Positions 11,576 to 41,596 of a stretch of 64,000 nucleotides of DNA are shown one piece after another. The translations under genes and the position numbers were made by a program. The notes beneath the pieces are model-generated. The model made no database searches. It was given only the letters and a program-made list of their open reading frames with translations, and was not told the origin of the DNA. Source of the stretch: Planctomycetota bacterium. GTDB taxonomy: Bacteria > Planctomycetota > GCA-002687715 > DRQF01. Position 1 is the stretch's first letter. Every line of letters begins with the position of its first letter. The DNA lies in the NCBI GenBank assembly GCA_047639315.1, contig JBLINQ010000003.1:10452-74451 (forward strand). The letters run 5' to 3'.

Positions 11576-11954
11576 TCGGTCAACATCCTCTATGTAGTCA
11601 AGGAGTACTGGGTCTTAGTCCAGGCTCTGTTCTGGAAAATCTGGTTTTCGCGGCCAAAATAGGCCCGACTGTTTGTGCTGCAGACGGCACCGCGAAAGGT
11701 CCAGATCCCACAAGTGTGAGATACCTTATCGTGGGTCGTCGCCGAAATCGACATTTGACGGGCGATCATTGATCCCGAATGACAGTTCTCGACCAAGCAG
11801 GGGTAAGTTCTTCAGCAAACAGGGCTCACAAATCACTATAGATTGTTAACTTGGCTGCCCAGAATAGCCCCTCATGGTGAGCGGACCACCCTTGTGGCTA
11901 TGTCTGAAGTGAATATCTCCCTCTGACACCGTCAGCGAGGAGATTCTGACGTTT

Positions 11955-12233
11955 TTGTCGTCATTTGACCAACGCAGAAGATTTCATAACCGGAATTTTG
12001 CTGATCCTGGTATGCTTGTCGATTACCCGCTGAGTCCCGCGAATCAGTTTTCTCAAGGACCCCGCTCCAGTGAATTTTGGAGTTCGGCAGCGAAAATTGC
12101 TCGCCTGAAAACGTCTGACGACGTACTGAAGGTCGAGTACCGCGACTTTTTTTTGCGCCCGTATATGAATGAAAATCGTCCTCTCGTGACTGCCGACCAT
12201 GGTGTCGATAGTTACGTAGACCAGACTATATAA
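11955..12233 (+). CDS. candidate small ORF (92 aa from TTG, or 74 aa from ATG 12010) in an otherwise empty intergenic region
   Basis: It is the only + strand ORF upstream of the strong terminator at 12289-12329. GAGGAG lies at 11937-11942. There is no recognisable family and the coding signal is weak. Confidence 0.25.
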   Translation: MSSFDQRRRFHNRNFADPGMLVDYPLSPANQFSQGPRSSEFWSSAAKIARLKTSDDVLKVEYRDFFLRPYMNENRPLVTADHGVDSYVDQTI

Positions 12234-12288
12234 AGGTTTACCTAGTCCACGGCTTTCCACTTTCTCAGTTGACCGGGTAGACTTCTTC

Positions 12289-12329
12289 GACGGCACCGAG
12301 CCCCTTCTCTCGGTGCCGTCACTTTTTTT
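12289..12329 (+). terminator. rho-independent terminator
   Basis: A perfect 12-bp stem GACGGCACCGAG / CTCGGTGCCGTC with an 8-nt loop is followed by ACTTTTTTT. Confidence 0.75.
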
Positions 12330-12411
12330 CCCTCGATGAAACTTTATTCAGGCCCTACCGAATTTCAGGATCAGCCGCCGACTTCCGATATATGGCGTAG
12401 GACTCCCAAGT

Positions 12412-15281: not shown

Positions 15282-15309
15282 GACCGCGTTCCCGAAAGGA
15301 CTGATACCG

Positions 15310-15816
15310 ATGGACGACAGCAAGAAACTCAAAGACAACCGCATGATCTTCTACGAAGATGATATTGCGGACATGGTCAAGATCCTCAAAGAATTAAACA
15401 GCATGTCTGGAGCGAAATGCTCCCTCCTGATCGACAAGGAAGGACATATGGTTGCGCGCGAAGGGGCTGTCCGCTCCTTCGACACCGACTCACTGTCAGC
15501 TCTTGTGGCTGGATCATTTGCAGCCACTCGCGAAATGGCGCGAATGGTCGGAGAAGATGAATTTACGGTGATGTTTCATCAAGGCCAGAGAGACAACCTT
15601 CAGCTGACTCTGATCGATGACCGGACAATTCTAACCGTCATTTTTGACGATCAGACCCAACTAGGAATGATCCGTCTCTATACCGCCGAAGCAGCCAAAA
15701 AACTCAGCGAATTGTTTATCAAGCAGAGCAAGAAGGGCGATCGTGCCGGTATCGAACTCGACAATGATTTCGCTACCGCAGGGAAGGCCAATCTCGACGA
15801 CGTATTTGGCGTCTGA
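15310..15816 (+). CDS. mglB: MglB (Roadblock/LC7 GTPase-activating protein of MglA)
   Basis: ATG at 15310. SLLIDKEGHMVAREG ... DSLSALVAGSFAATREMARMVGEDEFTVMFHQGQRDNLQLTLIDDRTILTVIFDDQTQLGMIRLY parallels Myxococcus MglB, including the acidic C-terminal tail ending in NLDDVFG. Confidence 0.85.
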   Translation: MDDSKKLKDNRMIFYEDDIADMVKILKELNSMSGAKCSLLIDKEGHMVAREGAVRSFDTDSLSALVAGSFAATREMARMVGEDEFTVMFHQGQRDNLQLTLIDDRTILTVIFDDQTQLGMIRLYTAEAAKKLSELFIKQSKKGDRAGIELDNDFATAGKANLDDVFGV

Positions 15817-16411: not shown

Positions 16412-16990
16412 ATGGACGAGTGGGATCTTCTTGAAGCGAAGGACGGTGCGGCGGAAGCGTACGAGGAAATCGTCCAACGCCATTATCAGTCGGCATTCCA
16501 ATTTGCCCGCCAAATACTCTCGGATGCCCAGCACGCCGAAGACGTCGTCCAAAAAGCATTCGTCAATATTTATGTCACGCGTGAGCGCTGCCAGCGTCGC
16601 GCCAAGTTTAAGACCTTTCTTTTCAGGGTCGTATCAAACTTGGCGATCAATGAGCTCAATCGCAAACGCCCGGTCGCTTCGGTCAGTGAAGTCATGCCTG
16701 ACAATCGGGAAGGAGGCGCGTTCTCCTTCTCTGACCCAGATTCGATCCGACCAGAAGCGGCTCTCGAGTCTGCAGAATTGGGGCAAATGATCGAGGCAGC
16801 ACTGCAACAACTACCCCCGCGCCATCGAGCAGCATTGTATTTGCGCGAATATCAGCAGATGCCTTATGCTGGGATTTCCGAGGTCTTAGACGCTTCCCTG
16901 AACGAAGTGAAGATCTGGATTCATCGTGGCCGAGGAGCCCTCCAGAAGATTCTGAAACCCTATTTAGATCGGGGCGAGAGCATTTCATGA
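16412..16990 (+). CDS. ECF (group 4) RNA polymerase sigma-70 factor
   Basis: Region 2 (AEDVVQKAFVNIY, FKTFLFRVVSNLAINE) and the region 4 HTH (MPYAGISEVLDASLNEVKIWIHRGRGAL) are present. GAGGG RBS. Confidence 0.9.
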   Translation: MDEWDLLEAKDGAAEAYEEIVQRHYQSAFQFARQILSDAQHAEDVVQKAFVNIYVTRERCQRRAKFKTFLFRVVSNLAINELNRKRPVASVSEVMPDNREGGAFSFSDPDSIRPEAALESAELGQMIEAALQQLPPRHRAALYLREYQQMPYAGISEVLDASLNEVKIWIHRGRGALQKILKPYLDRGESIS

Positions 16991-21316: not shown

Positions 21317-21460
21317 TTTCCTACCTTGGCGCTCACTTTTAGTGGAGTCATGAACTGGCTCCTGTCTACTTGGTCCTTGGGATGAAGACTTCGTTCCAAA
21401 ATTCTCGACTAATTCTCAATTTCCACTGATCTACTCTTTCCTTTCCGGGAGATTGTCCCA

Positions 21461-21485
21461 GCATGCCAAGCATGCCAAGCATGCC
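21461..21485. repeat. tandem 9-bp repeat GCATGCCAA, 2.8 copies
   Basis: The sequence reads gcatgccaa gcatgccaa gcatgcc. Each unit contains the palindrome GCATGC. It lies in the divergent intergenic region between 21316 and 21606. Confidence 0.6.
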
Positions 21486-21605
21486 TTTTTCTCTGAGCAT
21501 GGTAAAACTGTGAGCTCAGAGAACTTCGCCGAGAATGGGTCGTTTCTAGCGCAACCCAAGGAAACCGCCCCTCGGCCAATGGATTACATCAAGAGGACGA
21601 AGGTC

Positions 21606-22193
21606 ATGAACGAAAATCTGAAGCGCAATCTGTTTCTCGTCAAAGAACACGTCGGCATGTTCAAAGCGGCAAACAACTATGACATTCATGATCCCGAGAC
21701 CGGTGAAATCATCCTGATGTGCCGGGAAGATAATCTTGGCTTCTTCACCAAAATGCTGCGCTTTACTGATTACAAGCGGATGACGCCCTTTGATGTCGAA
21801 GTGCGGACCCCGGAAGGGGAAACCCTCATTCGAGTTAAGCGCGGGATTTCCCTATTCCTGTCCAACGTTGAAGTTTTCGACGAGAACGATCAGTTGGTCG
21901 GCGGATTCAAGCAGAAGCTTTTCAGTATTGGCGGGGCCTTTTCCGTCCTCGACGAGAACGGCAGCCCAATTTGCGATTTGAAAGGCAAATGGACGGGGTG
22001 GGACTTCCGATTCATGGCAGGAAACAAGGAACTTGCTCATGTCTCGAAGAAATTCGCAGGCATGGCTCGAGAGTTCTTTACCAGTGCCGATAACTACGTT
22101 CTTGAAATCTCGGAAGATGTCCCAGCCGACAATAGTGCGCGCCAACTCATCATGGCGGCAGTCATGTGTATCGACATGGTATTGAAGGAGTAA
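21606..22193 (+). CDS. phospholipid scramblase / LURP-one-related (tubby-like fold) family protein
   Basis: ATG at 21606 has GAGGA/GAAGG upstream. The repeated beta-strand pattern and the C-terminal hydrophobic helix QLIMAAVMCIDMVLKE resemble the scramblase family C-terminus. The tracked ORF start at 21453 runs through the 9-bp repeat. Confidence 0.55.
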   Translation: MNENLKRNLFLVKEHVGMFKAANNYDIHDPETGEIILMCREDNLGFFTKMLRFTDYKRMTPFDVEVRTPEGETLIRVKRGISLFLSNVEVFDENDQLVGGFKQKLFSIGGAFSVLDENGSPICDLKGKWTGWDFRFMAGNKELAHVSKKFAGMAREFFTSADNYVLEISEDVPADNSARQLIMAAVMCIDMVLKE

Positions 22194-27990: not shown

Positions 27991-28041
27991 GCCTCCTGGT
28001 CTCAGAAATTGCGTCGATCCGACCTTATTGCTCAAGAATGC

Positions 28042-29730
28042 ATGTTCATGCACCCGATAGGGTTCTTGGAGAACCATACCGGGAAAAGGAACCGTATCGT
28101 GCGAAAATCAAAGGTCTCCTTGTGCATGATTGTACGAGATGAAGAATCCAATTTGGATCGTTGTCTACGTGCGGCAAAACCATATGTCGATGAGATGTGC
28201 ATTGTCGATTCGGGCTCGATTGATGGCACGGTTGGCATCGCGAAAGCCCATGGGGCTAAAGTTCAAAAGATAGATTGGCCCAATGACTTCGCGGAGGCTC
28301 GCAATGTCTCGTTGGAGATGGCGACCGGGGATTGGATCCTGGTTCTGGATGCGGATGAGGTCTTGCGTTCCGGTGCGGAACAGGAGTTCGGGGCCATAGT
28401 TGACGATCCCGATATCATCGCGGGTTTTCAGAATGTCACCAATCACGGGGATGAGGGTAAGCAGGTCAGTTGTCTGATCATGCGCCTGTTCCGCAATATG
28501 CCCGACCATCGTTTTGTCGGCGCCATCCATGAGCAGGTGATCACTCCCATTCTCGACAATGGCGCTCGAATGAACATGCGCGTGGTCGGCCGAATCCTCG
28601 ACATCGATCACTACGGTTACACCGAATCGGCCCGTCAAGAGAAGAACAAAGATGAGCGGAACCGGGTCCACTTCGAACACGGACTCGAGAAAGAGCCCGA
28701 GAACGCTTACCTGTGGTTCAAATATGGCGACTTTCTGCGCCGCTTCGATGACATGAGTGCAGTACTCACGGCACTCAAGAACGCCGTCGATATCGTAGCG
28801 AGAATGCCGGACGCCGAAGTTGTAACTTTGACTTATGCAGCTGAGCCCCACGCGCTCCTTGCTCTTGAGCTGATCAAGCTTGGCCGTGTGGAGGAAGCGC
28901 ATGCAACGATGGTGGCTGCCCGGAAGCGAACGCGTGTGACGCCGATGCTTCACTGGGTTTGGGGCCACATCAATTTAAAATCGCAAAACTGGCAAGAGGC
29001 GAAGGACGCTTTTGAGGCTTGCCATGCCCTCGACAATCAGTCGGTTCACGTGCCGGCCCAACCTGGAATCACGAGTGGACGTAGTGTCTTTGGGATTGCT
29101 CGAGCTCTCTTAGGCATGGGACAGAAAGAGGAGGCTCTTGCCCTTTTCGAAAGTGGTGCCAAGTCGTGGCCCGATTGTGGTGACCTGCAAAAAGCTCAAG
29201 CGCGAGTCCTCATTGCTCGAGGCGAATACAAAGGTGCTATGGAAATCTGCATGGCCTTTTTGAAGGACGATGAAACCGACGCTGAATTCTGGCAAATCGG
29301 CGCTGAGATGATGATGGAGTTGGGGCTTTGGGATCAGTCTCATACTTGGTCCGGCCGAGCCCAAGCCTGCAAGTGTCCGGAAAATTCCGGCTTGTGTGAC
29401 GGCACCGCCGGCGAATTATCATTCGGCATGATGGCCTTAGAAGTGGCCGCAGATCATTGGGCCAGGAGTCCCGACAATCCGGTTTGTCAGGCCGGTCTTG
29501 CACTGATCCACGTGATGGTCGCCGAACCGATCCCTTCCGACATCGATTTAGAATCTCCCGCAATCCATTATGGGTTCAGCTGTATATTGCGCCGCCTTTT
29601 GCGAGCTCCTCAAGGAACGGGGGTTGCCGCACAGATCGGTGCTGGTTTGGAGATTCGGCAAATCACTCATGGGGGCGTTCAGGGGCTACTCCAAAGACAC
29701 ATGGTGGGTTTATTAACTCCGATTGCTTGA
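28042..29730 (+). CDS. family 2 glycosyltransferase fused to TPR repeats
   Basis: SLCMIVRDEESNLDRCL, VDSGSIDGT and DWILVLDADE form a GT-A DxD-type signature. The C-terminal half is a helical repeat region. The first in-frame ATG is at 28042. Confidence 0.8.
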   Translation: MFMHPIGFLENHTGKRNRIVRKSKVSLCMIVRDEESNLDRCLRAAKPYVDEMCIVDSGSIDGTVGIAKAHGAKVQKIDWPNDFAEARNVSLEMATGDWILVLDADEVLRSGAEQEFGAIVDDPDIIAGFQNVTNHGDEGKQVSCLIMRLFRNMPDHRFVGAIHEQVITPILDNGARMNMRVVGRILDIDHYGYTESARQEKNKDERNRVHFEHGLEKEPENAYLWFKYGDFLRRFDDMSAVLTALKNAVDIVARMPDAEVVTLTYAAEPHALLALELIKLGRVEEAHATMVAARKRTRVTPMLHWVWGHINLKSQNWQEAKDAFEACHALDNQSVHVPAQPGITSGRSVFGIARALLGMGQKEEALALFESGAKSWPDCGDLQKAQARVLIARGEYKGAMEICMAFLKDDETDAEFWQIGAEMMMELGLWDQSHTWSGRAQACKCPENSGLCDGTAGELSFGMMALEVAADHWARSPDNPVCQAGLALIHVMVAEPIPSDIDLESPAIHYGFSCILRRLLRAPQGTGVAAQIGAGLEIRQITHGGVQGLLQRHMVGLLTPIA

Positions 29731-29870
29731 GACTTCGCGTGGGCCGTGACTTTACCCAAGTGCCTTGGGAGGTTAGCCTCATAGCTGAATGACCTCTTCG
29801 TCCGAGCGTTCTTGTTGGATAGAGCCAGTACGACGCCTCGGTGATCGCAGAAGAAGAGATAGGGAGCAAG

Positions 29871-30632
29871 ATGCGGTTCGCGGTAATATCGGATTTACAT
29901 AGCAATATCGAAGCTCTCACCAATGTCCTTCAAGACATTGATGACCGAGGAATAGATCCGATTTATTGTCTTGGCGACGTCGTCGGCTACGGCCCTGATC
30001 CTCGTGCTTGCATTGACCTTGTTCGTGAGCGTTGTGCTTTCTGCATTCGAGGAAACCATGACGACGCTTTGTTCACGGGACCAGATCGCTTCAATCCCTA
30101 TGCTCGCCACGCCATCGAATGGACGAAGACTCGGCTCAAGCCCGGTCTTTTCAAACCACGATCCAACAATGACCGCTGGCAATTTCTTGAAGAACTCCCT
30201 CTCGATTTGAGACTCGGTGATCACTACTTCGTCCATGGTTCTCCGCGAGACCACGTCAATGAATACATCTACCGAGAAGACGTGTTTTTTAACGCCGACA
30301 GCAAGCTGAAGACCATTTTCAAAAGTGTCGATCGGTTACTGTTTGTAGGCCACACCCATCTGCCGGTAATCATCTCTGACGACATGAAAACTTTGGTGCC
30401 GGAAGAGGGCAAGCAAGAGTTCAAGCTCGACCCAGACCGCAAGTACATCATCAACGTTGGTTCAGTTGGTCAGCCGCGCGATCGCGACAGTCGGTCGTGC
30501 TATGTTGAATATGACAACGACGTAATTCGTTATCACCGTGTCGCTTACGACATTCAAAAAGTGGTCGACAAGATCAACGCCAATCCATCCCTTGATTCTG
30601 TTCTCGGTTCACGCCTCCTAGAAGGCATGTGA
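29871..30632 (+). CDS. metallophosphoesterase (calcineurin-like; YfcE/MJ0936-type)
   Basis: Motifs ISDLHSN, GDVVGYGPDP, RGNHD, VHGSP and GHTH appear in canonical order. ATG at 29871 with AGGGAG upstream. Confidence 0.85.
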   Translation: MRFAVISDLHSNIEALTNVLQDIDDRGIDPIYCLGDVVGYGPDPRACIDLVRERCAFCIRGNHDDALFTGPDRFNPYARHAIEWTKTRLKPGLFKPRSNNDRWQFLEELPLDLRLGDHYFVHGSPRDHVNEYIYREDVFFNADSKLKTIFKSVDRLLFVGHTHLPVIISDDMKTLVPEEGKQEFKLDPDRKYIINVGSVGQPRDRDSRSCYVEYDNDVIRYHRVAYDIQKVVDKINANPSLDSVLGSRLLEGM

Positions 30633-30687: not shown

Positions 30688-32199
30688 ATGCCGACCATTG
30701 AGCTGATCAGAAACGAAAAAATCGTCAGGCAATTTACGCTCACAGACGTTCCGTTCATTGTCGGTCGCGAGGAAGGTTGTGACCTTGTCCTTCAAGACGA
30801 GTGGATTTCTCGCCGTCATCTTGCCCTTCGACCGATGGGTTCAGGTCAATGGGAAGCCGTCGACTTGGGCTCTGGCAATGGTTCTTTCATCGGCTCAGAA
30901 CGCATTCAGTCAACGATTCTCGCCCATGGCGACATGGTTCGGCTTGGTAGCTCCCTGCTTCGTTTTCACCATGAACAGGCCAAGCCAAAGTCCATTGATT
31001 TGTCACGTCCAGCGGCGGTCGAGCTTCATCTATTGAGCCAATTGGCTCGGGCCCTTGCCGAAAACGAAGGGCTCAAAGCCGAATTGGCAGTCCTGGCCAC
31101 TGCGTCAAGGTCAGGTCAAACCGTTCCGCAGGGTCGAGTTGGGGCCCTTCGCAACTCCATTTTGAACCCGCGATTGCTAATGCATTTCCATCATCCTCAC
31201 GGGCGAGTTGGATCAGCTTTGGGAAGGGCGCCAAAGGAACGTGGGGTCTTGTTGCGTCCGGTTTTCCTCGGATTGGGGAGGATTGGCGACTCATTGGGCC
31301 GAGCCCTCCATCAATTAGGGCGGACTCGGCTTCGGGTTGTCTTGGAATCGATGGTTCCGGCTCATCGGATCAAATCTCCCGCAAAAATCGTTTTGCGTCC
31401 TCAAGTGGACGTTTCCCCCCTTCCCCTGGTCGACGACTTGGCCTCGGGGGTCGATTCTCTCGGACTGTGGCTCAGTGGAGAAACGCAGCAGGCCAGCGAT
31501 CTCTTCTTGATGCTCTCTGTAGATCTTTTTGGTGCCGGTAACCACGCATTAAGTCTCTTGAGAGACTTTATGAGCAACCTTGATCAGGCGCTTGGAGGTG
31601 AGGGTACTGTCCGTAAACACGCGATTTTGGTCCAAGATCAATCTGATGAGACGGTCGACCTGATGTCCTGGCGCACATTGATTGACTCAAGCCTCCTGAC
31701 TTCCGTTATCTGTGTCGATCGACAACGAGTCGCAGGATTTGGGTCGGACAAACACAAGGCACCGATGATGACCGTCGCAGGTACGATCGAGAGCGCCCAG
31801 CGGTTAACTTTGCACGAGCCAGTCCTTGGGGCCTGGCGCGAAGAACATCTTGGCGCTTTTTTCGACCAAGAAGGATTCACCACCTTCGGCTGTAGTGCCA
31901 CCGACGATTTGGAAGATTTGGGCCAAGCGATCGAGGATTTGCGCAATCAGGCCCTTTTTCATGCAGGATTTGGCTGTGGTATGGCGCGTAGTTTTTTTCT
32001 GCTCGCGGTCGTTGGTTCCGGCATTCCGGGTGCAGTCCCAGATCTCGCTGAGCAGGTGAAAGTCGGTTTGGAGGGAATCCACGACCAGTGGCCTCAGGCG
32101 AACGGCAATTTGGCGGTCTACATCGATTCTGCCGACTCAATTCGCCTTTTCGTGGGACTTAGCGGGCAAACAAAGTGCCAATTTTCCTCCCAAACGTGA
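30688..32199 (+). CDS. FHA domain protein with coiled-coil linker and a C-terminal domain that by eye resembles a degenerate FtsZ/tubulin fold
   Basis: The FHA domain reads FIVGREEGCDLVLQDEWISRRHLAL ... DLGSGNGSFIGSERI. The C-terminal collinear landmarks versus FtsZ are detailed in the findings. The FHA call is secure; the FtsZ-like call is a hypothesis. Confidence 0.85.
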   Translation: MPTIELIRNEKIVRQFTLTDVPFIVGREEGCDLVLQDEWISRRHLALRPMGSGQWEAVDLGSGNGSFIGSERIQSTILAHGDMVRLGSSLLRFHHEQAKPKSIDLSRPAAVELHLLSQLARALAENEGLKAELAVLATASRSGQTVPQGRVGALRNSILNPRLLMHFHHPHGRVGSALGRAPKERGVLLRPVFLGLGRIGDSLGRALHQLGRTRLRVVLESMVPAHRIKSPAKIVLRPQVDVSPLPLVDDLASGVDSLGLWLSGETQQASDLFLMLSVDLFGAGNHALSLLRDFMSNLDQALGGEGTVRKHAILVQDQSDETVDLMSWRTLIDSSLLTSVICVDRQRVAGFGSDKHKAPMMTVAGTIESAQRLTLHEPVLGAWREEHLGAFFDQEGFTTFGCSATDDLEDLGQAIEDLRNQALFHAGFGCGMARSFFLLAVVGSGIPGAVPDLAEQVKVGLEGIHDQWPQANGNLAVYIDSADSIRLFVGLSGQTKCQFSSQT

Positions 32200-32406
32200 T
32201 CAGAAATCGCAGGAAAAGTGACGATTTGATTTGTGCCTCCCAAACGAGGTTAAGTTCAATAACAGTCCGGGCCGAAGCTCATGATGGGCCAAGGTTTAGC
32301 ACATCAAGGCTTGACAGCAGCCGTCCGAATCGACAACTTAGATCGTCACCAGGGATACGGCTCGGCTCGCCGTCCACCTGAAGGTGAGTTTGGCACGGAG
32401 AAGAGA

Positions 32407-33504
32407 ATGGCAGAAAAAGTCGAGATTGCGGTCGAGACCCATGTCGGCATGGTCCGCGCAGAGAATCAGGACCACTTCTGTGTCTTGCCTGCGAAGGGCT
32501 CCGCCGACGAGATGTCCAAGGGTCACCTCGTAGTCGTCGCAGACGGAATGGGTGGTCACACGGGCGGCAGTATCGCAAGCCAAACAACCACCGGGGCGAT
32601 CTTGGAGGCTTTTGACTCTTCCAAGATGGAAACCATGCGGGACCTGCTCGAGGAATCTGTCCTCGCAAGCAATGAGGCCGTCAAAGCCAAACAACAAAAG
32701 AACATTCAGTTGAAGGATATGGGCACCACATGTGTGGCCGCCTTGTTCCGCGGATCGGCCCTTATGGTTGCGCATCTCGGCGATTCACGGTGTTACATGC
32801 ATCGCGGCGACCAGAATGAGCAAGTGACTCGTGATCACACCTATCTGAATGAACTGATCGATATCGGTTTGCTGACAGAAGAGCAGGCTGAAGGTCATCC
32901 CGACAAGAATATCATCACGCGCTGCGTCGGAATGTCGACCAATCTTGAAATTGACTTCAACCGACGAACGCTTGAGCCCGGCGACATCATCTCCATTTGC
33001 AGCGATGGCCTGAGCAACTTTGTGAGCATGGACGAATGTGGCGAGGTCGTCCGAGAACTTGCTCCAAAAGAAGCCTGTCTGAAGTTGATTGAAATGGCCA
33101 ATGAGCGTGGCGGTGACGATAATATCACTGTGGCCGTGATCCTGATCCACGAGCTGCCGCCGGAAGATAAAGATCTTCTCAGGCGTGACGAAGAACAAAT
33201 GCTCCTTTGCAACGCGAAAATGACACCTATCATTAAGCGTGACGACCTTAACTTGGACGACTCCGAAGCAGATACGGCGAAGGGACACCCTAGGCCGAAC
33301 ACGTCGAATCGGAAGTCTGAACAAACCGGGCGTTACGATGTTGCGTTCTTGGAGCCCGGCGAAACGTCCAAGGTAAATCTCACAGCAGAGACGGTTACCG
33401 GCTTGGGGCAGAACAGTTCAAATGCAACCGCAGGCTGGTATTGGGTGATCGGGGCAGAGGTTCTTCTTTTGATCGTTCTCCAAATGATGATTGGCCAGTA
33501 CTAG
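32407..33504 (+). CDS. PP2C-family Ser/Thr protein phosphatase with C-terminal TM anchor
   Basis: ATG at 32407 with GGAG upstream. Motifs RAENQDH, VVADGMGGHTGG, GTTCVAAL, AHLGDSRCY, CSDGL and GGDDNITV are present. The C-terminal TM helix is WYWVIGAEVLLLIVLQMMIG. Confidence 0.9.
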   Translation: MAEKVEIAVETHVGMVRAENQDHFCVLPAKGSADEMSKGHLVVVADGMGGHTGGSIASQTTTGAILEAFDSSKMETMRDLLEESVLASNEAVKAKQQKNIQLKDMGTTCVAALFRGSALMVAHLGDSRCYMHRGDQNEQVTRDHTYLNELIDIGLLTEEQAEGHPDKNIITRCVGMSTNLEIDFNRRTLEPGDIISICSDGLSNFVSMDECGEVVRELAPKEACLKLIEMANERGGDDNITVAVILIHELPPEDKDLLRRDEEQMLLCNAKMTPIIKRDDLNLDDSEADTAKGHPRPNTSNRKSEQTGRYDVAFLEPGETSKVNLTAETVTGLGQNSSNATAGWYWVIGAEVLLLIVLQMMIGQY

Positions 33505-33645: not shown

Positions 33646-35247
33646 ATGATCGGCACCAAGGTCGGAAAATACTTGATAAGCAAGGAGATCGGCGACGGCG
33701 GCCACGCGTTCGTTTTTAAGGGCGAAGGCGATGGGCAAGTTGTTGCGATCAAGATGCTCAAGCCAAGTGTTGCCGATGAAGATAATCTCGAGCAGAGATT
33801 TGTTCGTGAGGCCCAGGCTCTCAAGCAGCTGAAGCACCCGAGCATTGTCCAGTTCGGTGATTACCATTTTCAAGACGGTTACCACTTCCTGATTCTTGAA
33901 TACATGGATCAGGGCTCGGTGGAAGATCTGATCAAGACCATGGGTGCCGTGGCACCTCGCTACGCGATCCCGATCTTTTACAGTGTCCTCGATGCGATCC
34001 AATACAGCCATGACCACGGCTATATTCACCGAGATCTCAAACCGAATAACGTTCTCATTAATTCTGAAGGTCAGGCAAAACTCACCGACTTTGGCATCAC
34101 CAAAGTCGTTGGCGGCAAGAACCTGACACAACAAGGATTTGTGTTGGGCACGACGGTTTACATGGCACCCGAATACCTGACACAAGGTATGTGCAATCAT
34201 CAAACCGACGTCTACGCTCTTGGTGTCACATTCTATGAAATGCTGACCAGTCGGAAGCCTTTTGAATTCCTTCGGGAAGACGAACCGCTTCGAGACTTCG
34301 CTCTTCGTGTGTGCCAAGGAACGGCTACACCGCCGTCTTCCTACCGGCCGATTCCGGCTCAGCTGGAACGAATCGTCCTCAAGGCACTCGCTCAGAATCC
34401 AAAAGAACGATACAAATCCGCCAAGGAATTCCGCAAAGACCTTGCCAAGCACTTCCCTGAATTTGTGAAGCGCGACATCGTCATCCCGTCGGGACGAGCG
34501 ATGACTCGTTACGTCAAGATTGACGACTTTGTCACTGATGGTAGTTTCGGCGGAGCCGGTGGGGCTTCAAAGAATGGTCTGAGTGTCGGCGTTCGAGCAG
34601 CGATCGCCATCATTGCATTCTTGGTCATTTTTGGGATGACTTATCAGGCGCCGGCCTGGTTCCCAAATGAACTGGGAAGCACGGCACAATCCCTCGTATT
34701 CAGCGTTGGTGGCGGTGTTGGTTTGCTGGTCGGGCTCATCTTGTTCTTCATGTTGCCGCGTTCGCGCTCAATGCAGCCCAGCCTTGCTGGTGGCGGTGCC
34801 GCTGCTGCGCCTCGCCAGGAGATAGAAAATTCAGATTCCTCGATTGGTGCCGAAGAGTCTTCGATCCCAGAGTTCGATATTGAGGATACCATTCCATTTG
34901 CTGACAACTTCCACAGCAATAAACCGGCGGCCATGTCAGAGTCGTCCGAGCTGAATGCGTACTTAGAAGTCATCAGTGGCCCAGACAAGGGCCGGCGGTT
35001 TGGCCTACGTCCAGTGAGCCGGATTGGCCGTGATTTGCGTGTTGATATTCGACCTCATGACCCTGAGATCTCACGTCACCACACAGCCATCACTTTCAAC
35101 GGGCATGGATTCACAGTCGAAGACCTTGGTTCGACCAATGGTTCTTTCCTCAATGAAGAACGAATCATCGACAAGGAAGCCTTGCACGATGGCGACATCT
35201 TGCGCTGCGGGTCGAGCTCCATGCGCTTCGAATCCCAGAAGAAGTAA
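33646..35247 (+). CDS. Ser/Thr protein kinase - two TM helices - C-terminal FHA domain
   Basis: Kinase motifs are GDGGHAFVF, VAIKMLK, HRDLKPNNVLI, DFGITK and YMAPE. The TM helices are AAIAIIAFLVIFGMTY and LVFSVGGGVGLLVGLILFFML. The FHA domain reads SRIGRDLRVDIRPHDPEISRHHTAI ... DLGSTNGSFLNEERI. Confidence 0.9.
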   Translation: MIGTKVGKYLISKEIGDGGHAFVFKGEGDGQVVAIKMLKPSVADEDNLEQRFVREAQALKQLKHPSIVQFGDYHFQDGYHFLILEYMDQGSVEDLIKTMGAVAPRYAIPIFYSVLDAIQYSHDHGYIHRDLKPNNVLINSEGQAKLTDFGITKVVGGKNLTQQGFVLGTTVYMAPEYLTQGMCNHQTDVYALGVTFYEMLTSRKPFEFLREDEPLRDFALRVCQGTATPPSSYRPIPAQLERIVLKALAQNPKERYKSAKEFRKDLAKHFPEFVKRDIVIPSGRAMTRYVKIDDFVTDGSFGGAGGASKNGLSVGVRAAIAIIAFLVIFGMTYQAPAWFPNELGSTAQSLVFSVGGGVGLLVGLILFFMLPRSRSMQPSLAGGGAAAAPRQEIENSDSSIGAEESSIPEFDIEDTIPFADNFHSNKPAAMSESSELNAYLEVISGPDKGRRFGLRPVSRIGRDLRVDIRPHDPEISRHHTAITFNGHGFTVEDLGSTNGSFLNEERIIDKEALHDGDILRCGSSSMRFESQKK

Positions 35248-35264: not shown

Positions 35265-36848
35265 TCAATAATCCCAAAGCCCATCGATATTGAATTCACG
35301 CTGGTAATATTGTGAGTTTCCGTAGCTCACTTCCTTAAGCTCACCCACAGTCGGAATGGCCCTAAGCCACTGCCAGTCTGCAGTCGTGCTCTTATTCCAG
35401 AGCAAGAAAGCCCGCTTGAATTGACCTTTGTGTGGTTGGATGTTGCGCAGCGTATGACGCATGAATGTCGAGTTTGTAACCTGTGGTACCGTGACAAAGT
35501 TTCGGTAGAAGCGAGATGGCGACAAGCTGTCTGAGGTAAAGACGATGTCGCTGGCCGTGAACTCAACGTTCATATCCTCAGCGGCTCTCTTCTGGTCATG
35601 TTGACCCTTCCTGAGTTCTCGATACTCAAGCGCTTCGGCAACACCCAAAGCCCCAACGACGAGAGCCGCAAGTAAGAGAAGGAGGTCGCCTCGGAGCCTT
35701 AGCTGGTCCGCCCCATCTTTCAGCGCTCGCACTCCGACTCCGAAGAAGAATGCGAAGCCAGCCAAGCTGACGAGAGGCCAAAACTCGTGCATGGTCGCAT
35801 GGGTCCGGAAGACCACGCAAGGGAGAAGACCAGCCACGAGTAGCATGAGCCCTGGTCGCAAAATCTTGGTGCGCAACTCTGCAACCATCACTGCCGCGAG
35901 AAGGCCGACGCTCGACAAAACCAAAAACGGAATCGTGAGAGTATACGAAGCGTTTGTCCTTATGGCAGCCCACCACTCGGCCCATCCGACCTTGGCGATA
36001 AAGAGTTCTGTCTCGGTCTCGGGATCACGAATGCCGAGAGCACGAAAGAGTCCTTCGAGAGTCTCGCTTAGTCGGTCCCAACCACCATCGGCCCACAGCA
36101 ACCACCCAAACACGAGAGCAAAGGCAAACCCGAATGGTAGCCCGGCTTTAAGCGCCAATTGCAATTTGGATCGGATCGAGACGCGCGAGAAAACGATGTC
36201 CAAGAAAATAGCGGCACAGAGGAAATAACAGAACCAATCAAGGAGCCCGGCGATGAAGGCTATACCGACAAAGATCCACCACGAGGCGGACGTCTTCTCT
36301 CGTCGATACCGAAGCCAAGCCAACACGACTGGCACGAAGAAGGCCAAGCAGAACATCGGGATGTCGACCATCTTTCCGAACTGGAAAATCATCGGCAGGG
36401 AGGCAAACCCAAGAGTGGCTAAGGACCCAACCAATGGCCCCGCGAATCGCGCCAGTCCGAACCGCAAGATCAGCAAGTTTGCGATCAACGCGAACAGCAT
36501 CGGGAGCCGAAGAGCCCGCTCATCTTTGCCCAAGAAGCGATAGCAAGGATAGATGACGGCATAGATCGTTCCGGGATGATTCGTATAGGGAATAAAGAGG
36601 CCTTCACCGCTTGGATGAAATAGGAGCGGGCCTTGCATCCGCGAATCAAAGTAACCGAACTTGTCGATACCCTTGCAAGCATAGCCATAGTAGGCCCCGC
36701 TGTTGACGCCGCAATGAGAGTTGTCCCAGGGCTCGTCGAGCCAGGAGATGTGCGAGCCAAGAAGGATCAAGCAGAATAGAACAGTGAATGCGTCGACTAA
36801 GCGTTCCAACAAACGTGGAGATTGCCTCGGCGCCTCGTTCGTGCTCAT
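35265..36848 (-). CDS. polytopic membrane protein, GT-C fold glycosyltransferase (family 39/83, ArnT/PMT-like)
   Basis: There are more than 10 hydrophobic helices. A first-loop acidic motif WLDEPWD and YTNHPG resemble the DE and HPP motifs of PMT/ArnT-like enzymes. ATG at 36848 overlaps the upstream stop (TAATG). Confidence 0.6.
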   Translation of the reverse strand: MSTNEAPRQSPRLLERLVDAFTVLFCLILLGSHISWLDEPWDNSHCGVNSGAYYGYACKGIDKFGYFDSRMQGPLLFHPSGEGLFIPYTNHPGTIYAVIYPCYRFLGKDERALRLPMLFALIANLLILRFGLARFAGPLVGSLATLGFASLPMIFQFGKMVDIPMFCLAFFVPVVLAWLRYRREKTSASWWIFVGIAFIAGLLDWFCYFLCAAIFLDIVFSRVSIRSKLQLALKAGLPFGFAFALVFGWLLWADGGWDRLSETLEGLFRALGIRDPETETELFIAKVGWAEWWAAIRTNASYTLTIPFLVLSSVGLLAAVMVAELRTKILRPGLMLLVAGLLPCVVFRTHATMHEFWPLVSLAGFAFFFGVGVRALKDGADQLRLRGDLLLLLAALVVGALGVAEALEYRELRKGQHDQKRAAEDMNVEFTASDIVFTSDSLSPSRFYRNFVTVPQVTNSTFMRHTLRNIQPHKGQFKRAFLLWNKSTTADWQWLRAIPTVGELKEVSYGNSQYYQREFNIDGLWDY

Positions 36849-37351
36849 TAGCCCACGAATTTCCAGCTCAAGATTGATGCAATTATGACGAATACAAAGG
36901 CGGCACAATAAACCCAGAAATTGGGGCTCACAACACTTTCATCAAGCAAAGGCATTTGCGTTTCGCGAGACGTTTTTGGTCCGCGCGTTGGTTGGAATTG
37001 CTTGATCGCACGGGCAATCCCGTTTTCCGATTTTCCGCCCCCGTGTTCGGAGAAGCGAAAAAGGAGTCGGGGACCCTGTTGGCCGAGTGAAATCTCATCG
37101 CCATCTTGTATTGTGGCGCGCCGGACACCAGTGCCGTTGAGGTAAGTACCGTTCAGGCTGCCCATGTCGTAGAGGACAAAGCCATTTTCTTCGAGGCGTA
37201 TTTCGGCGTGATGAGAAGAGACCGTTGGGTCGAGAAATGGATCAAGTGAAACATCGTTACTCCGGCCGCGGCCAATAATGAGCGACTCGCGCTCAAAGGA
37301 TTCCTTGCAACCGCTTTTGCTTCCGGAAACATGGTCGATCATGACTTTCAT
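36848..37351 (-). CDS. FHA domain protein with C-terminal TM anchor
   Basis: The FHA domain reads LIIGRGRSNDVSLDPFLDPTVSSHHAEI ... DMGSLNGTYLNG. The C-terminal TM helix is FWVYCAAFVFVIIASILSW. Confidence 0.85.
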   Translation of the reverse strand: MKVMIDHVSGSKSGCKESFERESLIIGRGRSNDVSLDPFLDPTVSSHHAEIRLEENGFVLYDMGSLNGTYLNGTGVRRATIQDGDEISLGQQGPRLLFRFSEHGGGKSENGIARAIKQFQPTRGPKTSRETQMPLLDESVVSPNFWVYCAAFVFVIIASILSWKFVG

Positions 37352-37426: not shown

Positions 37427-39499
37427 CTATTCAACTTTTTCTTCGCCAATTTGAGCAATAAATTTTGCTTCGGCAATATTCTTCAAGCCATCAAATGCTT
37501 TGAAACGTAGTCGAATTCGCCACTCCCCATCCTCGCCGCCTGGCAGCGCGGTGACCACGCCCTGATTCTTAATGCCTTCCTCGCCTACTTTTAGCGGCGA
37601 GGATTGTCCGCCAGGACTGATGAGTTCAATCGAAACTAAGTCAGGTGGGACAACTTCTGCAATGTTAAAATCAAATCGGAAGGGGAGCTTCTTGACCACG
37701 CCATCTTTAGCATCAATCACAATACGGGCACTGTCACTCACAACTTGAATCTGAAACGCACGGCGTGTTTCTTTGCCGTATGAATCGCTCACTTTGATGA
37801 ATGGATCGGATTCAAGATGGACAGGCATTGACAGGTCAGTCGGTGACTTGTCCTTGGACTGTGACAGGGCGGTGCAACGTTCGAGCTCTAGTGACTCGAG
37901 GTCAATTCCCGACGGGTCTTGGATTCGCAGTCTTGCGTTGGGTGCCTTGCCCCAAAAAAAAACACGCTCTTCAGCAGGAATCTGGCGATCCTTATACCAA
38001 AGCGAAACGGCTGGGCTCTTGCCATCGTTCGGACCGAGCTGGGCAATGAGATTGAACGTGAGTTTCTTTGTCGTTGTGTTGCCAGCCTTATCTGTGGCCG
38101 TAATGCTGATGGCGCCTCCAGCTTCGACCTTCACATCATATTCGTGAAGCGAAATAAGGGTTTTCTTGCGCGAAACGCGCATCGAGCTTCTTGGCGTTGC
38201 TGTTGCTGAAGTTGCTTGAAGCTCGTCGTTGTCTTCGATTTTGATCGACCATTTTGAACCGCGTCTGGCATCAACTGGGCTCGCGATTTTGGGGTCGCTC
38301 TTCTGAGTGTCGATGACTTGGATCGTTGGAGGCACTTGATCGACGCGAATACGCACTTTTCCCAGCGAGAGTTGGCGATCGCCTTGATCAAGCATGATCT
38401 CTCCGATCCAAGTGCCATCGTTTCCTAGGTTGACAGCCGTCGCTTTGTGCCCATTGGACAGGGCCAACATTTTGTATTTTTGGTCTTTGGCATTCAGGAA
38501 GATTCTGTGTCCTTGCTCGTTATCTTTGAAAGCCAAGGCGATGTCGACGAGCGCTGAGCTGCTCCAACCAACCTGGCCGTTTGTGAGATCTTGCTCGCCA
38601 CACTTGATCGTCTCGATCTTGGGGGCGGGACGGCGCCACTTTCCGAAAGTGAATTCGAAACGGCTACTGTTTGAAGCCCAGTCTTCGGCGACGACGGCAT
38701 AGCGAGATGTGCCCGTGGAGCTATCGAAGGTGTGCTGAAAACGAGGATTCATTTCATTGATGAACTTCGTCTCTTTGCCGCTGCCTTGATCAATGAATGA
38801 CACCGAACGAACAAGGGTCTCGTCTTGAACAATGACGTCAATCTTCTCGTCGTGTTTCAAGCCTATTCGGCCGGCTTCGTCGAGTTCCACCAATCCTCGG
38901 CCTTCAATAAGGAAGCGGATCTGAGGCGGGCTGTTGTCGCGACGAAGTTGCACTTCGTAGTCTCGCTTGATGCCATTGCCAAGGACGGCAGAGACTCGGA
39001 TTTCTTCCGTTGCCGATTCTTTCGCGTCTGGAATCTTGATTTGGACTGAAGAGTTCTTGTCGTCAAGAGGTGAGCCGTTGATCTCTAATCCACTCAGGAT
39101 GTTCTTTTCGTTGGCTTTGGATTTCAAAGAGACGAGCAATTTTGTTGCGGCGGATGAACCAAGGATGAGGCCGCCACCAAGGGAGACCTTACTCAAGGAA
39201 ATGGAATCATCTGGACCCAAAGACAGCAATAGCGAGTTGTCGAGATGCGCGCGAGTGATTCGCGAGTGCATGGGGTCGAGTTTGTTCTTTTGCTTCTCTG
39301 AAAGAGAGCTCCGGTTTTCGGCCAAGACGTTAAGCCTTGCGATGAGGTCAGCCTCATTTTCCTTGGCTTTCTCGGCCTCAAAAAGACTCTCAAGCTCACT
39401 GGCATTTTGGCTCAGCGAAATGAGTGCCCAACCGCGCTGCCCGACAAGGAGCATCAACAGAAGTGCAATCACTTTGACGAGGGTGCTACTTTGAGTCAT
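37427..39499 (-). CDS. large secreted protein of unknown function (beta-rich, possibly Ig-like repeats)
   Basis: ATG at 39499. The signal/TM segment is LVKVIALLLMLLVGQRGWA. It is a 690-aa ORF co-directional with the kinase upstream and the FHA-TM gene downstream. Confidence 0.7.
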   Translation of the reverse strand: MTQSSTLVKVIALLLMLLVGQRGWALISLSQNASELESLFEAEKAKENEADLIARLNVLAENRSSLSEKQKNKLDPMHSRITRAHLDNSLLLSLGPDDSISLSKVSLGGGLILGSSAATKLLVSLKSKANEKNILSGLEINGSPLDDKNSSVQIKIPDAKESATEEIRVSAVLGNGIKRDYEVQLRRDNSPPQIRFLIEGRGLVELDEAGRIGLKHDEKIDVIVQDETLVRSVSFIDQGSGKETKFINEMNPRFQHTFDSSTGTSRYAVVAEDWASNSSRFEFTFGKWRRPAPKIETIKCGEQDLTNGQVGWSSSALVDIALAFKDNEQGHRIFLNAKDQKYKMLALSNGHKATAVNLGNDGTWIGEIMLDQGDRQLSLGKVRIRVDQVPPTIQVIDTQKSDPKIASPVDARRGSKWSIKIEDNDELQATSATATPRSSMRVSRKKTLISLHEYDVKVEAGGAISITATDKAGNTTTKKLTFNLIAQLGPNDGKSPAVSLWYKDRQIPAEERVFFWGKAPNARLRIQDPSGIDLESLELERCTALSQSKDKSPTDLSMPVHLESDPFIKVSDSYGKETRRAFQIQVVSDSARIVIDAKDGVVKKLPFRFDFNIAEVVPPDLVSIELISPGGQSSPLKVGEEGIKNQGVVTALPGGEDGEWRIRLRFKAFDGLKNIAEAKFIAQIGEEKVE

Positions 39500-39730
39500 T
39501 TCTTCTATCCAGCTTGGCTTCGCTTGGGTTGGTTCGCACCTTGATGCCACCACCAACCCCCCCAGAGTAATGAGAACTTAACATAAGTTCTTTGCTGTAG
39601 GTTGATTAGTAGCGAACATGACGCGAATCTTCGGTAAATTTGGCCACTTTTACTTGGGATCATCAAAGAGGATGACGTTGAGTTTGCAACCGACAGACCC
39701 ATCGATTCACGCCGATTGGTTTCGAGGAAA

Positions 39731-41596
39731 CTAATCTTGGCCACGCCTAAAGATGCGGTCCATCCAATTTCGTCGTTCCGGGCTTTCAGGCCCTTCAATC
39801 TCGGCTCCGGCTGATTCTTGTTCTGCCCTATGGTTCTTGCTGAAGCATTGATTAAAGGCCTCTAAGACTCGGGCGGCACTCTGAGGCCGTTTCTCGGGCT
39901 CTTTGTTTAAGAGCCAAACGATGATTTTTGCCAGGTATGGTGGCTCAAGATCGGGCTGGAGTTCTAAAACGTCGATTGGGCGCTCATTGACGTGGCGATA
40001 AGCCTGGGCCATATCCGATCCTTCGAACGGGCTCTCCGTCGTAATCATGGCGTAGAGCAAGCAGCCCAAGCTGTAGAGATCGCCGGCGACACTGCTCTCC
40101 ACCCCCAGGTGAGTTTCTGGGGCGAGCCAGGCAGATTGGGCGCCATGGGTGATCCGGCAATCGGCAGGACTTAGATTTGGATTTGACCCAACCCCAGCAA
40201 GCTTCACCATGTCAAACTCGTCCAGTAGAATACATTCCGGTGTGAGTCGTCCATGGCAAAGGCCACCCTTGTTGGCCTCAACCAGGGCATCCAAAATGCC
40301 CTGACCAATCTGCAAAATTTGCCCGGGCGCTAATGGCTTGCCAGCTTTCAGGGTTTCCGCCAGCGATGAGCCCTTGACCAATTCTAATGCGGCCCACGAA
40401 AAAGTCTTTGTGTCACCCCAGTCATAGATCTCCTGGATATTCTCATGCTTCAGATTCTTGGCGGCTTCAAAGGCATCCAGATGCATGGTTCGTAGGTTTT
40501 GATTGCCACAGAACACTTCGAGGGCAACTTCTTTCCCGGACTCGATGTCTCTTGCCAGCCAGGTCTCTCGGCCGTCCTCACTATTGGTGAGCCATTCCGT
40601 TCGGTAGGCACCAATTTCCATGCGTGGTTCGAGGACTGTTTGCGTGCGGCCGAGATTGGCGTCGAGACGACTAATTTGCCACTGTGAGAATTCTGTCGAT
40701 AGATTCTCCCCGGACTCGTGGCGCTTCCTGACGCGGTTGATGCAATCTTCGAGATCTGCCAAAGAGGGGCGCTCTGCCGGCTCTTTCGCCAAGCAGGCCA
40801 TAATGAGTTGGCACATCTCTTCTGGCACGCGCCGACTACTATTGTGGGATTCGAGCGGTGTTGGTTGTTCCTTGCGGACTCGGGAGACCTCGGCGAAGCT
40901 GGAGACCTGAATCGGCACTTCACCAGTCAACATCTCGTAAAGCATGACGCCCACGGCATAGACATCCATGCCAGGAACCAATTCTCCGCGGGTTTGCTCC
41001 GGTGAGACGTATTCAGGTTTGCCTAAGAAGGTCGGCATCTGGGTGACTGGTTGAGCTTCTTGTTCCAGGGACTTGCCAATACCGAAATCCAGGAAGTAAG
41101 CATGCACCTGGCGGTCGTCATCGCGCACGATCAAAATGTTCTCGGGAGAGAGGTCGCGGTGAAGGATTCCTTCCTTATGAATTCCGGCGAGCCCTTGGAC
41201 GAGTTCTTTGGCCAAGTGGAGGAATCGGGGCAATGACATACGGCCCGGTTCGTCATCGATAAGCGATCGCAGGGTGCGTCCAGATAGGTAGTCCATGGCA
41301 ATCCATGGCTGTTCTGAGGACATATCTGCATCGACGTAATTGACGACCTGCTTGCAGTTTTTGAGCCGCTCTAAGAGTTTTGCTTCGCGGGCAAAGCGAC
41401 GCAACTGGCGAGGCACTTCTTCATTGCTGTTCGGCCCGGCAATAGGATCCCACATCTTGATCGCCACCGGCGCGCCAGTCTTACGATCGAAAGCGCGAAA
41501 TAACCTGGAGAGACCACCTCCGTTGAGGGGCTCTTTGATTTCGAAACGGTCATTGATGACGACTTGAGTGTCGCTACTCAGCGGTGATTCTTCCAT
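39731..41596 (-). CDS. tandem Ser/Thr kinase: active N-terminal kinase domain plus C-terminal pseudokinase domain
   Basis: Domain 1 carries VAIKMW, HRDLSPENILI, DFGIGK and VSPEQ. Domain 2 is kinase-like but reads VALEVF (no beta-3 Lys), HGRLTPECILL (no catalytic Asp/Asn) and LAGVG (no DFG). Confidence 0.85.
   Translation of the reverse strand: MEESPLSSDTQVVINDRFEIKEPLNGGGLSRLFRAFDRKTGAPVAIKMWDPIAGPNSNEEVPRQLRRFAREAKLLERLKNCKQVVNYVDADMSSEQPWIAMDYLSGRTLRSLIDDEPGRMSLPRFLHLAKELVQGLAGIHKEGILHRDLSPENILIVRDDDRQVHAYFLDFGIGKSLEQEAQPVTQMPTFLGKPEYVSPEQTRGELVPGMDVYAVGVMLYEMLTGEVPIQVSSFAEVSRVRKEQPTPLESHNSSRRVPEEMCQLIMACLAKEPAERPSLADLEDCINRVRKRHESGENLSTEFSQWQISRLDANLGRTQTVLEPRMEIGAYRTEWLTNSEDGRETWLARDIESGKEVALEVFCGNQNLRTMHLDAFEAAKNLKHENIQEIYDWGDTKTFSWAALELVKGSSLAETLKAGKPLAPGQILQIGQGILDALVEANKGGLCHGRLTPECILLDEFDMVKLAGVGSNPNLSPADCRITHGAQSAWLAPETHLGVESSVAGDLYSLGCLLYAMITTESPFEGSDMAQAYRHVNERPIDVLELQPDLEPPYLAKIIVWLLNKEPEKRPQSAARVLEAFNQCFSKNHRAEQESAGAEIEGPESPERRNWMDRIFRRGQD

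Follow-up and report, generated by a model that had tools for sequence, protein, structure and literature searches.

A Planctomycetota protein joining an FHA domain to a degenerate FtsZ/TubZ-like body within a Ser/Thr kinase and phosphatase gene cluster

A 64,000-nucleotide stretch of DNA from a Planctomycetota bacterium (the whole of this stretch is referred to here as the window) encodes, at 30688-32199, a protein in which an N-terminal FHA domain is joined through a helical linker to a two-domain body with the predicted fold of FtsZ and TubZ. Taking fold, homology and architecture jointly, we are highly confident of this assignment. The protein represents a small family of the tubulin/FtsZ superfamily that is absent from the domain libraries and papers searched. 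The GTPase motifs of its tubulin-like body are degenerate, and its gene lies in a cluster of Ser/Thr kinase and phosphatase genes. The explanation that we favour on balance is that the product is an FHA-fused, FtsZ-like pseudo-GTPase acting as a scaffold or adaptor under phosphothreonine (pThr) control. An identical protein (P0001) is present in the NCBI/JGI collections as 'hypothetical protein ACI97A_000198' from a Planctomycetota metagenome-assembled genome, and N-terminal alignment with homologues supports the ATG start at 30688. The gene and its parts are laid out as follows.

30688-32199, plus strand: whole gene, comprising FHA domain, helical linker and FtsZ/TubZ-like two-domain body (503 aa, ATG start).
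30730-30975, plus strand: FHA domain, residues ~15-96 (Pfam PF00498, FHA matches in the PDB, family conservation).
31009-31110, plus strand: long helix and possible coiled coil, residues ~108-141, holding the family-conserved E132 (AlphaFold2 secondary structure, low confidence).
31159-31221, plus strand: family-specific N-terminal extension of the tubulin-like body, a predicted 'LNPxL..F(P)' beta-hairpin, residues 158-178 (model strands 10-14 and 20-24, predicted local distance difference test score, pLDDT, ~80).
31261-31812, plus strand: FtsZ-like N-terminal GTPase-fold domain from strand S1 to helix H7, residues 192-375 (AlphaFold2 model, Foldseek).
31270-31290, plus strand: T1-like Gly-rich loop GLGRIGD (GVGGGGGN in FtsZ), with GxGxxG kept and also resembling a Rossmann/KtrA fingerprint (alignment, hhalign).
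31516-31548, plus strand: degenerate T4 tubulin-signature loop SVDLFGAGNHA (GMGGGTGTG in FtsZ) (alignment, hhalign).
31822-31851, plus strand: degenerate T7 loop VLGAWREEHL, with Arg384 in place of FtsZ D209 (hhalign, family alignment).
31840-32169, plus strand: FtsZ-like C-terminal domain, residues 385-494, the best-conserved part of the family (model, Foldseek, alignment).

The N-terminal domain, already recognised as FHA in an earlier reading made from the sequence without database searches (the sequence-only reading), was identified by Pfam on residues 24-87 (PF00498, E 9.2e-18, 64.9 bits against a cut-off of 20.7). The residues that bind pThr (G26 and R27; S41, R42 and H44; N64 and G65) are present and near-invariant in the family alignment. 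Matches of the window protein to PDB sequences were restricted to this domain, for example GarA at E 2e-10, and the remaining ~350 residues had no match in Pfam, NCBIfam or PDB sequences.

Relatives were sought by an exhaustive HMMER search of 1.84 billion representative proteins with a profile of two C-terminal regions, which returned 16 proteins at E <= 1e-3 and no more. Eleven long matches were read and aligned, and the FHA-linker-body order, whose retention in orthologues the sequence-only reading had asked to have checked, is kept in 10 of them; the exception, P0030 (325 aa), consists of the FtsZ-like body alone, without FHA and linker, and may be either a truncated gene call or a true FHA-less paralogue. 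A single full-length homologue, P0002 (43% identity), came from word-indexed searches; queried with only the C-terminal part, they returned the protein itself and nothing else, and a 13-sequence profile added one protein. Four further proteins came from loci in genome and metagenome collections (one genome, four metagenome). The 90% clusters hold 1-4 members each, none bearing an informative name, and the taxon-labelled members are all from uncultured Planctomycetota. The family divides into a window-like subgroup, g1 (the window protein, P0002, L006 and P0025-P0030), and a sister branch, g2 (P0031-P0036, P0039 and L011), whose profiles align in hhalign over 329 columns with a probability of 99.9% and E 1.6e-35.

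Residues 155-503 of the window protein were modelled with AlphaFold2 from a 17-sequence alignment, giving a pLDDT of 84.9 and a predicted template modelling (TM) score of 0.88; a run with two sequences was uninformative (pLDDT 41). The elements of the model follow one another as in FtsZ (S1-H1-S2 ... S4-H4-S5-H5-S6-H7-T7-H8-S7-H9-S8-H10-S9-S10), and the predicted structure has the two-domain fold of the superfamily, with a Rossmann-like domain, a core helix H7 and a C-terminal sheet/helix domain. N160 and P161 of the hairpin extension that precedes it are conserved in the family alignment. In a Foldseek search of the PDB all 50 matches listed were FtsZ, TubZ or CetZ, with no Rossmann dehydrogenase, at E 1.6e-14 to 6e-13, probability 1.00, TM-scores of 0.56-0.67 and 320-376 aligned columns; the highest query-normalised TM-scores among these were those of TubZ (0.62-0.65). 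The tubulin-fold proposal of the sequence-only reading would have fallen had neither profile nor structure matched anything in the superfamily, or had the best match been an unrelated Rossmann or PP2C fold, and the outcome was the opposite. Among the viral predicted structures of BFVD the best match was a phage FtsZ (E 3.9e-15, query-normalised TM 0.71), followed by a phage protein named just 'cell division protein'; PhuZ is one of the phage tubulin-like proteins that come next.

Sequence profiles connect the family to tubulin and FtsZ through the g2 branch. Four g2 proteins, three from the profile search and one (the L011 open reading frame, ORF) from a metagenome contig, carry GLGG(A/V/R)TG(I/A/V)G at loop T4, where the window protein has VDLFGAGNH, and G(L/A)G(R/A)(G/A)G at loop T1, in the columns of the window's GLGRIGD. 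Against all PDB sequences the top match of the g2 profile was RepX/TubZ (4ei7; E 1e-4), over 195 residues that include T4 and the S6 'D/N-x-x-L' region, and the next was Methanocaldococcus jannaschii FtsZ (E 0.068). When g2 was compared by hhalign with an FtsZ profile built from nine annotated ftsZ genes, the two aligned over 276 columns and FtsZ residues 11-315, with a probability of 89% and E 2.3e-6. The Pfam Tubulin model (PF00091) found P0032 (E 5.5e-4) and P0039 (E 2e-4), at 20.7-22.1 bits against a curated cut-off of 33, and in JGI the automatic name of P0039 is 'cell division GTPase FtsZ'. The window protein itself has no match at the curated PF00091, PF12327 or NCBIfam FtsZ cut-offs, so that a proposed check against PF00091 and PF12327 was negative for this protein and positive, below threshold and for PF00091, for these two relatives. 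On profile evidence the window protein belongs to the tubulin/FtsZ superfamily transitively, from g1 to g2 and from g2 to RepX and the FtsZ profile.

Landmarks that had been paired by eye with E. coli FtsZ were borne out by the profile alignments. The T4 region, TVAVVTKPF with HAILVQDQS, VDSLITIPNDKL with LLTSVICVDRQRV, GYAMMG with GFTTFG, ARGVLVNI with ARSFFLLA and the final strands all fall on the path by which hhalign aligns the whole-family profile with the E. coli FtsZ sequence alone (E 0.11). The T1 pairing is recovered from the g2-against-FtsZ path combined with the family alignment, which places the window's FLGLGRIGD in those columns.

Comparison with known tubulin-like systems sets the family apart from each of them, FtsZ and TubZ/RepX being nearest in fold and profile and FtsZl1/Tubulin_2 in concept. 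With FtsZ the window protein shares the two-domain fold (Foldseek E 1.6e-14, ~325 columns) and the collinear landmarks T1, T4, S6, T7 and S7-S10, and the g2 signature-keepers have both GGxTGxG and the T7 Asp; it differs in its N-terminal FHA domain and helix, which are not known from FtsZ, its degenerate T4 and T7 loops and an identity of 9-14%. It lacks the disordered linker and conserved FtsA/ZipA-binding C-terminal peptide of FtsZ, ending nine residues past the last strand, and in place of a dcw/ftsA-type context its gene has phosphatase, kinase and glycosyltransferase neighbours. TubZ/RepX provides the best PDB sequence-profile match of g2 and leads the listed structural matches by query-normalised TM-score, but the locus has no TubR/tubC partner genes and no small winged-helix gene adjacent to this one. 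TubZ/RepX is also plasmid- or phage-borne, whereas the window locus is conserved, chromosome-like and flanked by housekeeping genes, and its product has an FHA fusion and has lost the GTPase motifs.

FtsZl1/Tubulin_2 (PF13809; Makarova & Koonin 2010) is likewise a divergent planctomycete tubulin relative tied to Ser/Thr kinases and a coiled coil, with a proposed role in membrane remodelling (PMC2875224, PMC11032199). Some planctomycetal members are fused to a kinase domain (PMC2875224, PMC9871819, PMC11032199), FtsZl1 neighbourhoods are rich in kinase genes (PMC2875224), and among cytoplasmic kinases of planctomycetes the most frequent partner domain is tubulin-like (PMC11032199). No PF13809 match was found in 15 family members at a cut-off of E 1 or 10, a search in which the HMMER filters drop most weak matches. 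The order in FtsZl1 is FtsZ-like domain, coiled coil and helical domain, against FHA, helix and FtsZ-like body here; FtsZl1 is reported without the FtsZ-type C-terminal domain that is present in this family; and its neighbours are vWA, OmpA-like and GTPase genes, unlike those of the window locus. The family thus falls outside FtsZ, TubZ and FtsZl1 on curated scores, architecture and context, while fold and transitive homology still place the window protein in the tubulin/FtsZ superfamily.

The tubulin signature in T4 is [SAG]-G-G-T-G-[SA]-G. Of 17 proteins, 4 retain it; in the rest these positions vary freely, as the corresponding columns of the following members show.

P0032 and P0039: GLGGATGIG
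P0036: GLGGVTGAG
L011 ORF: GLGGRTGVG
Window protein: DLFGAGN
P0025: ETFDEAA
P0027: DDYSLDE
P0031: TSEAASA

The acids of the T7 synergy loop (N207-x-D209-x-x-D212 in FtsZ) activate GTP hydrolysis in the neighbouring subunit. Here, too, the window protein departs from FtsZ: it has A-W-R384-E-E, with Arg384 aligned with D209, and the signature columns of its T4 loop read SVDLFGAGNHA. The four signature-keepers and several other relatives have an Asp at the D209 position. The earlier claim of degeneracy therefore holds for the window protein, which has lost both the T4 signature and the T7 acid that four of its relatives have kept. Judged by these motifs, it is likely to be a pseudo-GTPase, unable to bind GTP in the canonical way.

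The degenerate domain is nevertheless under purifying selection. For L001 and L006, which are close orthologues, the ratio of nonsynonymous to synonymous substitution rates (dN/dS) is 0.18 overall; in the FtsZ-like part it is 0.23, and the latter value argues that the domain is functional. The most conserved positions of the family lie in the C-terminal domain (G443, P469-Q470-A471, R486 and G493). In a neighbour-joining tree without an outgroup the four signature-keepers group together with 83% bootstrap support, inside g2 at 98%. As the signature is ancestral to the tubulin/FtsZ superfamily, it must have been lost at least once; since the tree leaves the root unplaced, one loss or several are both possible. 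The relatives that keep the signature may, from their motifs, still be GTP-dependent polymers.

Two further features were seen in g2. After a conserved helix 'LAAENAVxKRALA', the linkers of P0031, P0032, P0033, P0036, P0039 and the L011 ORF carry the motif 'GL(I/L)D(R/P)xTGx(V/I/P)D(L/F/V/M)' (alignment columns ~205-225), which is missing from the window protein. FHA domains typically recognise a Thr that has a hydrophobic residue at +3, and for this reason the motif could serve as a head-to-tail or auto-inhibitory ligand of the FHA domain. The g2 proteins also finish, right after the last strand, in a conserved 'GGLPFPExL' tail (alignment columns 396-407) reminiscent of a short partner-binding C-terminal peptide; the end of the window protein, 'GQTKCQFSSQT', is unrelated.

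The gene is set in a cluster of the following members.

28009-29730, plus strand: GT2 glycosyltransferase fused to TPR repeats (syntenic in several relatives).
29841-30632, plus strand: metallophosphoesterase, 263 aa, ending 56 bp upstream of the FHA-FtsZ-like gene (syntenic in all window-like relatives examined).
32281-33504, plus strand: PP2C Ser/Thr phosphatase, 82 bp downstream of the FHA-FtsZ-like gene (in every family locus examined).
33646-35247, plus strand: Hanks-type Ser/Thr kinase with a C-terminal FHA domain (in every family locus reaching that far).
35265-36848, minus strand: multi-pass membrane protein, GT-C/PMT_2-like, 527 aa from ATG, convergent with the kinase gene (translation, L014 orthologue).
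36848-37351, minus strand: small FHA protein, 167 aa, with a C-terminal hydrophobic stretch that by eye is a membrane anchor (syntenic in relatives).
37427-39556, minus strand: 709-aa protein with an N-terminal hydrophobic segment that by eye is a signal anchor (faint, sub-threshold beta-sandwich/Ig-like Pfam matches).
39731-41596, minus strand: second Ser/Thr kinase, 621 aa, which closes the cluster (kinase gene at the same position in relatives).

The intergenic gaps are operon-like (56-142 bp). A PP2C phosphatase and a Ser/Thr kinase had been placed directly downstream of the gene by the sequence-only reading, and Pfam scans of 32281-33504 and 33646-35247 agree; this neighbourhood, whose presence in orthologues was a further point to be looked into, is conserved across the family loci. 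The order of metallophosphoesterase, FHA-FtsZ-like protein, PP2C and kinase-FHA on one strand recurs in relatives that are 20-45% identical to the window protein, and their opposite strand encodes a multi-pass membrane protein of ~530 aa, in most cases a small FHA protein, the product of a gene that varies between loci, and a second kinase. At the P0032 locus (L007/L008) the FHA-FtsZ-like protein, PP2C, kinase-FHA, FHA protein, large protein and kinase are all retained; the metallophosphoesterase is absent, and an ADP-ribosylglycohydrolase gene stands at 11734-12984 between the FHA-FtsZ-like and PP2C genes. The membrane protein of the window and its L014 orthologue are 31% identical (E 1e-53). 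The flanks are of housekeeping type, with poly(A) polymerase and solute-binding protein genes and, in two loci, a monomeric or Iso_dh-type isocitrate dehydrogenase. For the membrane protein gene, a mechanically called ORF of 35265-36908 begins at a TTG that lies within the upstream FHA gene, and gene calls on identical contigs place an ATG start at 36848; the FHA-gene stop and the membrane-protein start abut or overlap near this position, which suggests translational coupling.

In the actinobacterial FhaA-FhaB-PstP-RodA-PbpA-PknA-PknB cluster, and in the Fha1/PpkA/PppA pathway of type VI secretion, a membrane machine is assembled under the control of FHA binding to pThr. As in the window, FHA, PP2C and Hanks kinases are encoded there beside envelope or machine genes, but the FHA proteins of those systems carry no cytoskeletal fusion, FtsZ is a substrate in its own right and no homology is known beyond the signalling domains that they share. 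Haloarchaeal ESCRT loci contain an FHA-CdvA-like fusion with Ser/Thr kinase and phosphatase genes nearby (PMC10936438). This is the nearest analogue, but its host is archaeal and the partner is CdvA/ESCRT instead of tubulin/FtsZ. The sequence-only reading knew of no FHA-FtsZ-like fusion, and likewise we found none described, with FtsZ or with tubulin, in Pfam, NCBIfam or the searchable literature.

The presence of three FHA modules, two kinases and one PP2C beside glycosyltransferases and exported or membrane proteins suggests a Thr-phosphorylation switch acting on an envelope machine. In the mechanism that we propose, one or both kinases of the cluster would phosphorylate Thr on a membrane-associated partner, which might be one of the kinases, the membrane FHA protein or the GT-C-like enzyme, and the pThr so made would be the docking site for the FHA domain of the window protein. 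The conserved surface of the C-terminal domain would next let the tubulin-like body oligomerise or engage partners, and the resulting scaffold would organise envelope glycosylation or growth machinery, with PP2C resetting the switch. The sequence-only reading had likewise suggested a scaffold that Thr phosphorylation would recruit or release. We put forward this specific scaffold and envelope role only tentatively.

Several points weigh against the proposal or parts of it. Pairwise resemblance to FtsZ alone is not above chance: BLASTP of the window protein against E. coli FtsZ (NC_000913) gave an E value of at least 4, the protein has no significant direct sequence match to FtsZ, and the g1 profile against the FtsZ profile gave a probability of 5% and E 0.0074 over FtsZ residues 80-315. 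Resemblance to FtsZ becomes significant only through the family profiles and the structure model, and the fold assignment is supported by a predicted model from a 17-sequence alignment together with transitive homology. The loss of GTP binding is read from motifs alone, and the GxGxxG loop and the acid after strand 2 persist in a form that resembles the KtrA fingerprint, so that some nucleotide could still bind. For the locus, a weak PF13231 (PMT_2) match of the L014 orthologue is the sole basis of the GT-C assignment, and the envelope role is guilt by association, with phospho-site, partner and polymer all inferred.

An alternative that we regard as unlikely, yet worth weighing, is that the protein forms a nucleotide-dependent polymer, its T4/T7 pocket having been remodelled for ATP, ADP, NAD, an ADP-ribose derivative or non-canonical GTP and its filaments being gated by the FHA domain. 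A conserved Asp does follow the GxGxxG of T1, a conserved Glu/Asp closes strand 2, and the beta1-GxGxxG-alpha1-beta2 unit of residues ~192-221 (31261-31350) is matched by the family profile to KtrA/RCK (E 8.8e-8 for a tandem chain, 0.008-0.05 for single copies). Such a resemblance is expected, because the FtsZ N-domain has a Rossmann-like beta1-loop-alpha1-beta2 unit with an acid after strand 2. Purifying selection on the domain would also fit a working pocket, as would the ADP-ribosylglycohydrolase at the g2 locus and the metallophosphoesterase at window-like loci, enzymes that can act on nucleotide-derived substrates. The T4 positions, however, vary freely among the degenerate members (DLFGAGN, ETFDEAA, DDYSLDE, TSEAASA and others), which points to relaxed constraint and not to a new pocket, and the most conserved residues lie away from the pocket in the C-terminal domain.

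We consider it improbable that the genes serve conflict or defence, as an NTPase, kinase and FHA type of system in which the tubulin-like protein would multimerise as effector or sensor, and not envelope housekeeping. Tubulin homologues are known in GTPase-centred conflict systems (PMC7159879), and in the window the kinases match PADLOC kinase models such as PD-T4-6 and mad6 and the PP2C matches PDC-M21C. These matches are due to generic kinase and PP2C domains, and the defence reading was set aside on that ground; the FHA-FtsZ-like protein and five of the six other non-kinase proteins of the cluster have no PADLOC match, and Pfam scans of the cluster proteins revealed no effector nuclease, protease or toxin domain. 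Gene order, housekeeping flanks included, is held across relatives of 20-45% identity, which argues for vertical inheritance at a stable locus and not for a mobile island.

It is very unlikely that the body is instead a Rossmann NAD(P)- or nucleotide-binding domain of the TrkA-N/KtrA type followed by an unrelated alpha/beta domain, with the AlphaFold2 model misleading. The best PDB match of the whole-family profile is indeed KtrA, and the alignment behind the model is shallow (17 sequences, with a pLDDT of 41 when two were used). The KtrA match spans ~50 residues, however, whereas Foldseek aligns 320-376 columns to FtsZ/TubZ, and independent sequence support comes from RepX (E 1e-4), the FtsZ profile (E 2.3e-6) and the Pfam Tubulin matches; an identity with KtrA was rejected on this whole-domain evidence. 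That the gene is a decaying, functionless relic of an FtsZ-like gene, as the loss of T4 and T7 motifs and the great rarity of the family might suggest, is scarcely credible given an intact ORF in every member examined, dN/dS of 0.18-0.23, strong conservation of the C-terminal-domain motifs and FHA pThr-binding residues, and synteny held across deep divergence.

Other genes of the window were also inspected. At 13998-15816 (plus strand) a 427-aa Arf-family small-GTPase protein (PF00025, E 2e-6) is followed, with slight overlap, by a Roadblock/LC7 protein (PF03259, E 6e-15), a pair that resembles an MglA/MglB-type polarity module. A separate gene at 16412-16990 encodes a sigma factor of the extracytoplasmic function type, and a 990-aa protein encoded at 18344-21316 (minus strand) has sigma-70 region 4 towards its N-terminus together with multiple beta-sandwich repeats of the CarboxypepD_reg type. 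Pfam Scramblase (PF03803), best known as a eukaryotic family, matches the 246-aa product of 21453-22193 (plus strand) at E 1e-16.

Planctomycetota are the textbook case of free-living bacteria that divide without FtsZ, and how their budding or fission is organised is an open question. The absence of FtsZ from the phylum has been reported (PMC11032199). A complete though divergent FtsZ/TubZ-fold body, coupled to Ser/Thr phospho-signalling by its fused FHA domain, is a candidate for a phosphorylation-controlled cytoskeletal or scaffolding element in these bacteria. More speculatively, and with little confidence, it might be a remnant or re-purposed cytoskeletal element, positioned by Thr phosphorylation and directing envelope growth, budding or division, in a family whose members would form an evolutionary series from GTPase-competent polymers (the GGxTGxG clade) to nucleotide-independent pseudo-GTPase scaffolds like the window protein. 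As far as we have found, the FHA-tubulin fold architecture is new to the tubulin superfamily, and domain libraries current to 2025-2026 miss the family entirely. With both signature-keeping and signature-lost members in the same kind of operon context, the family offers a natural experiment in the conversion of a polymerising GTPase to a pseudo-enzyme.

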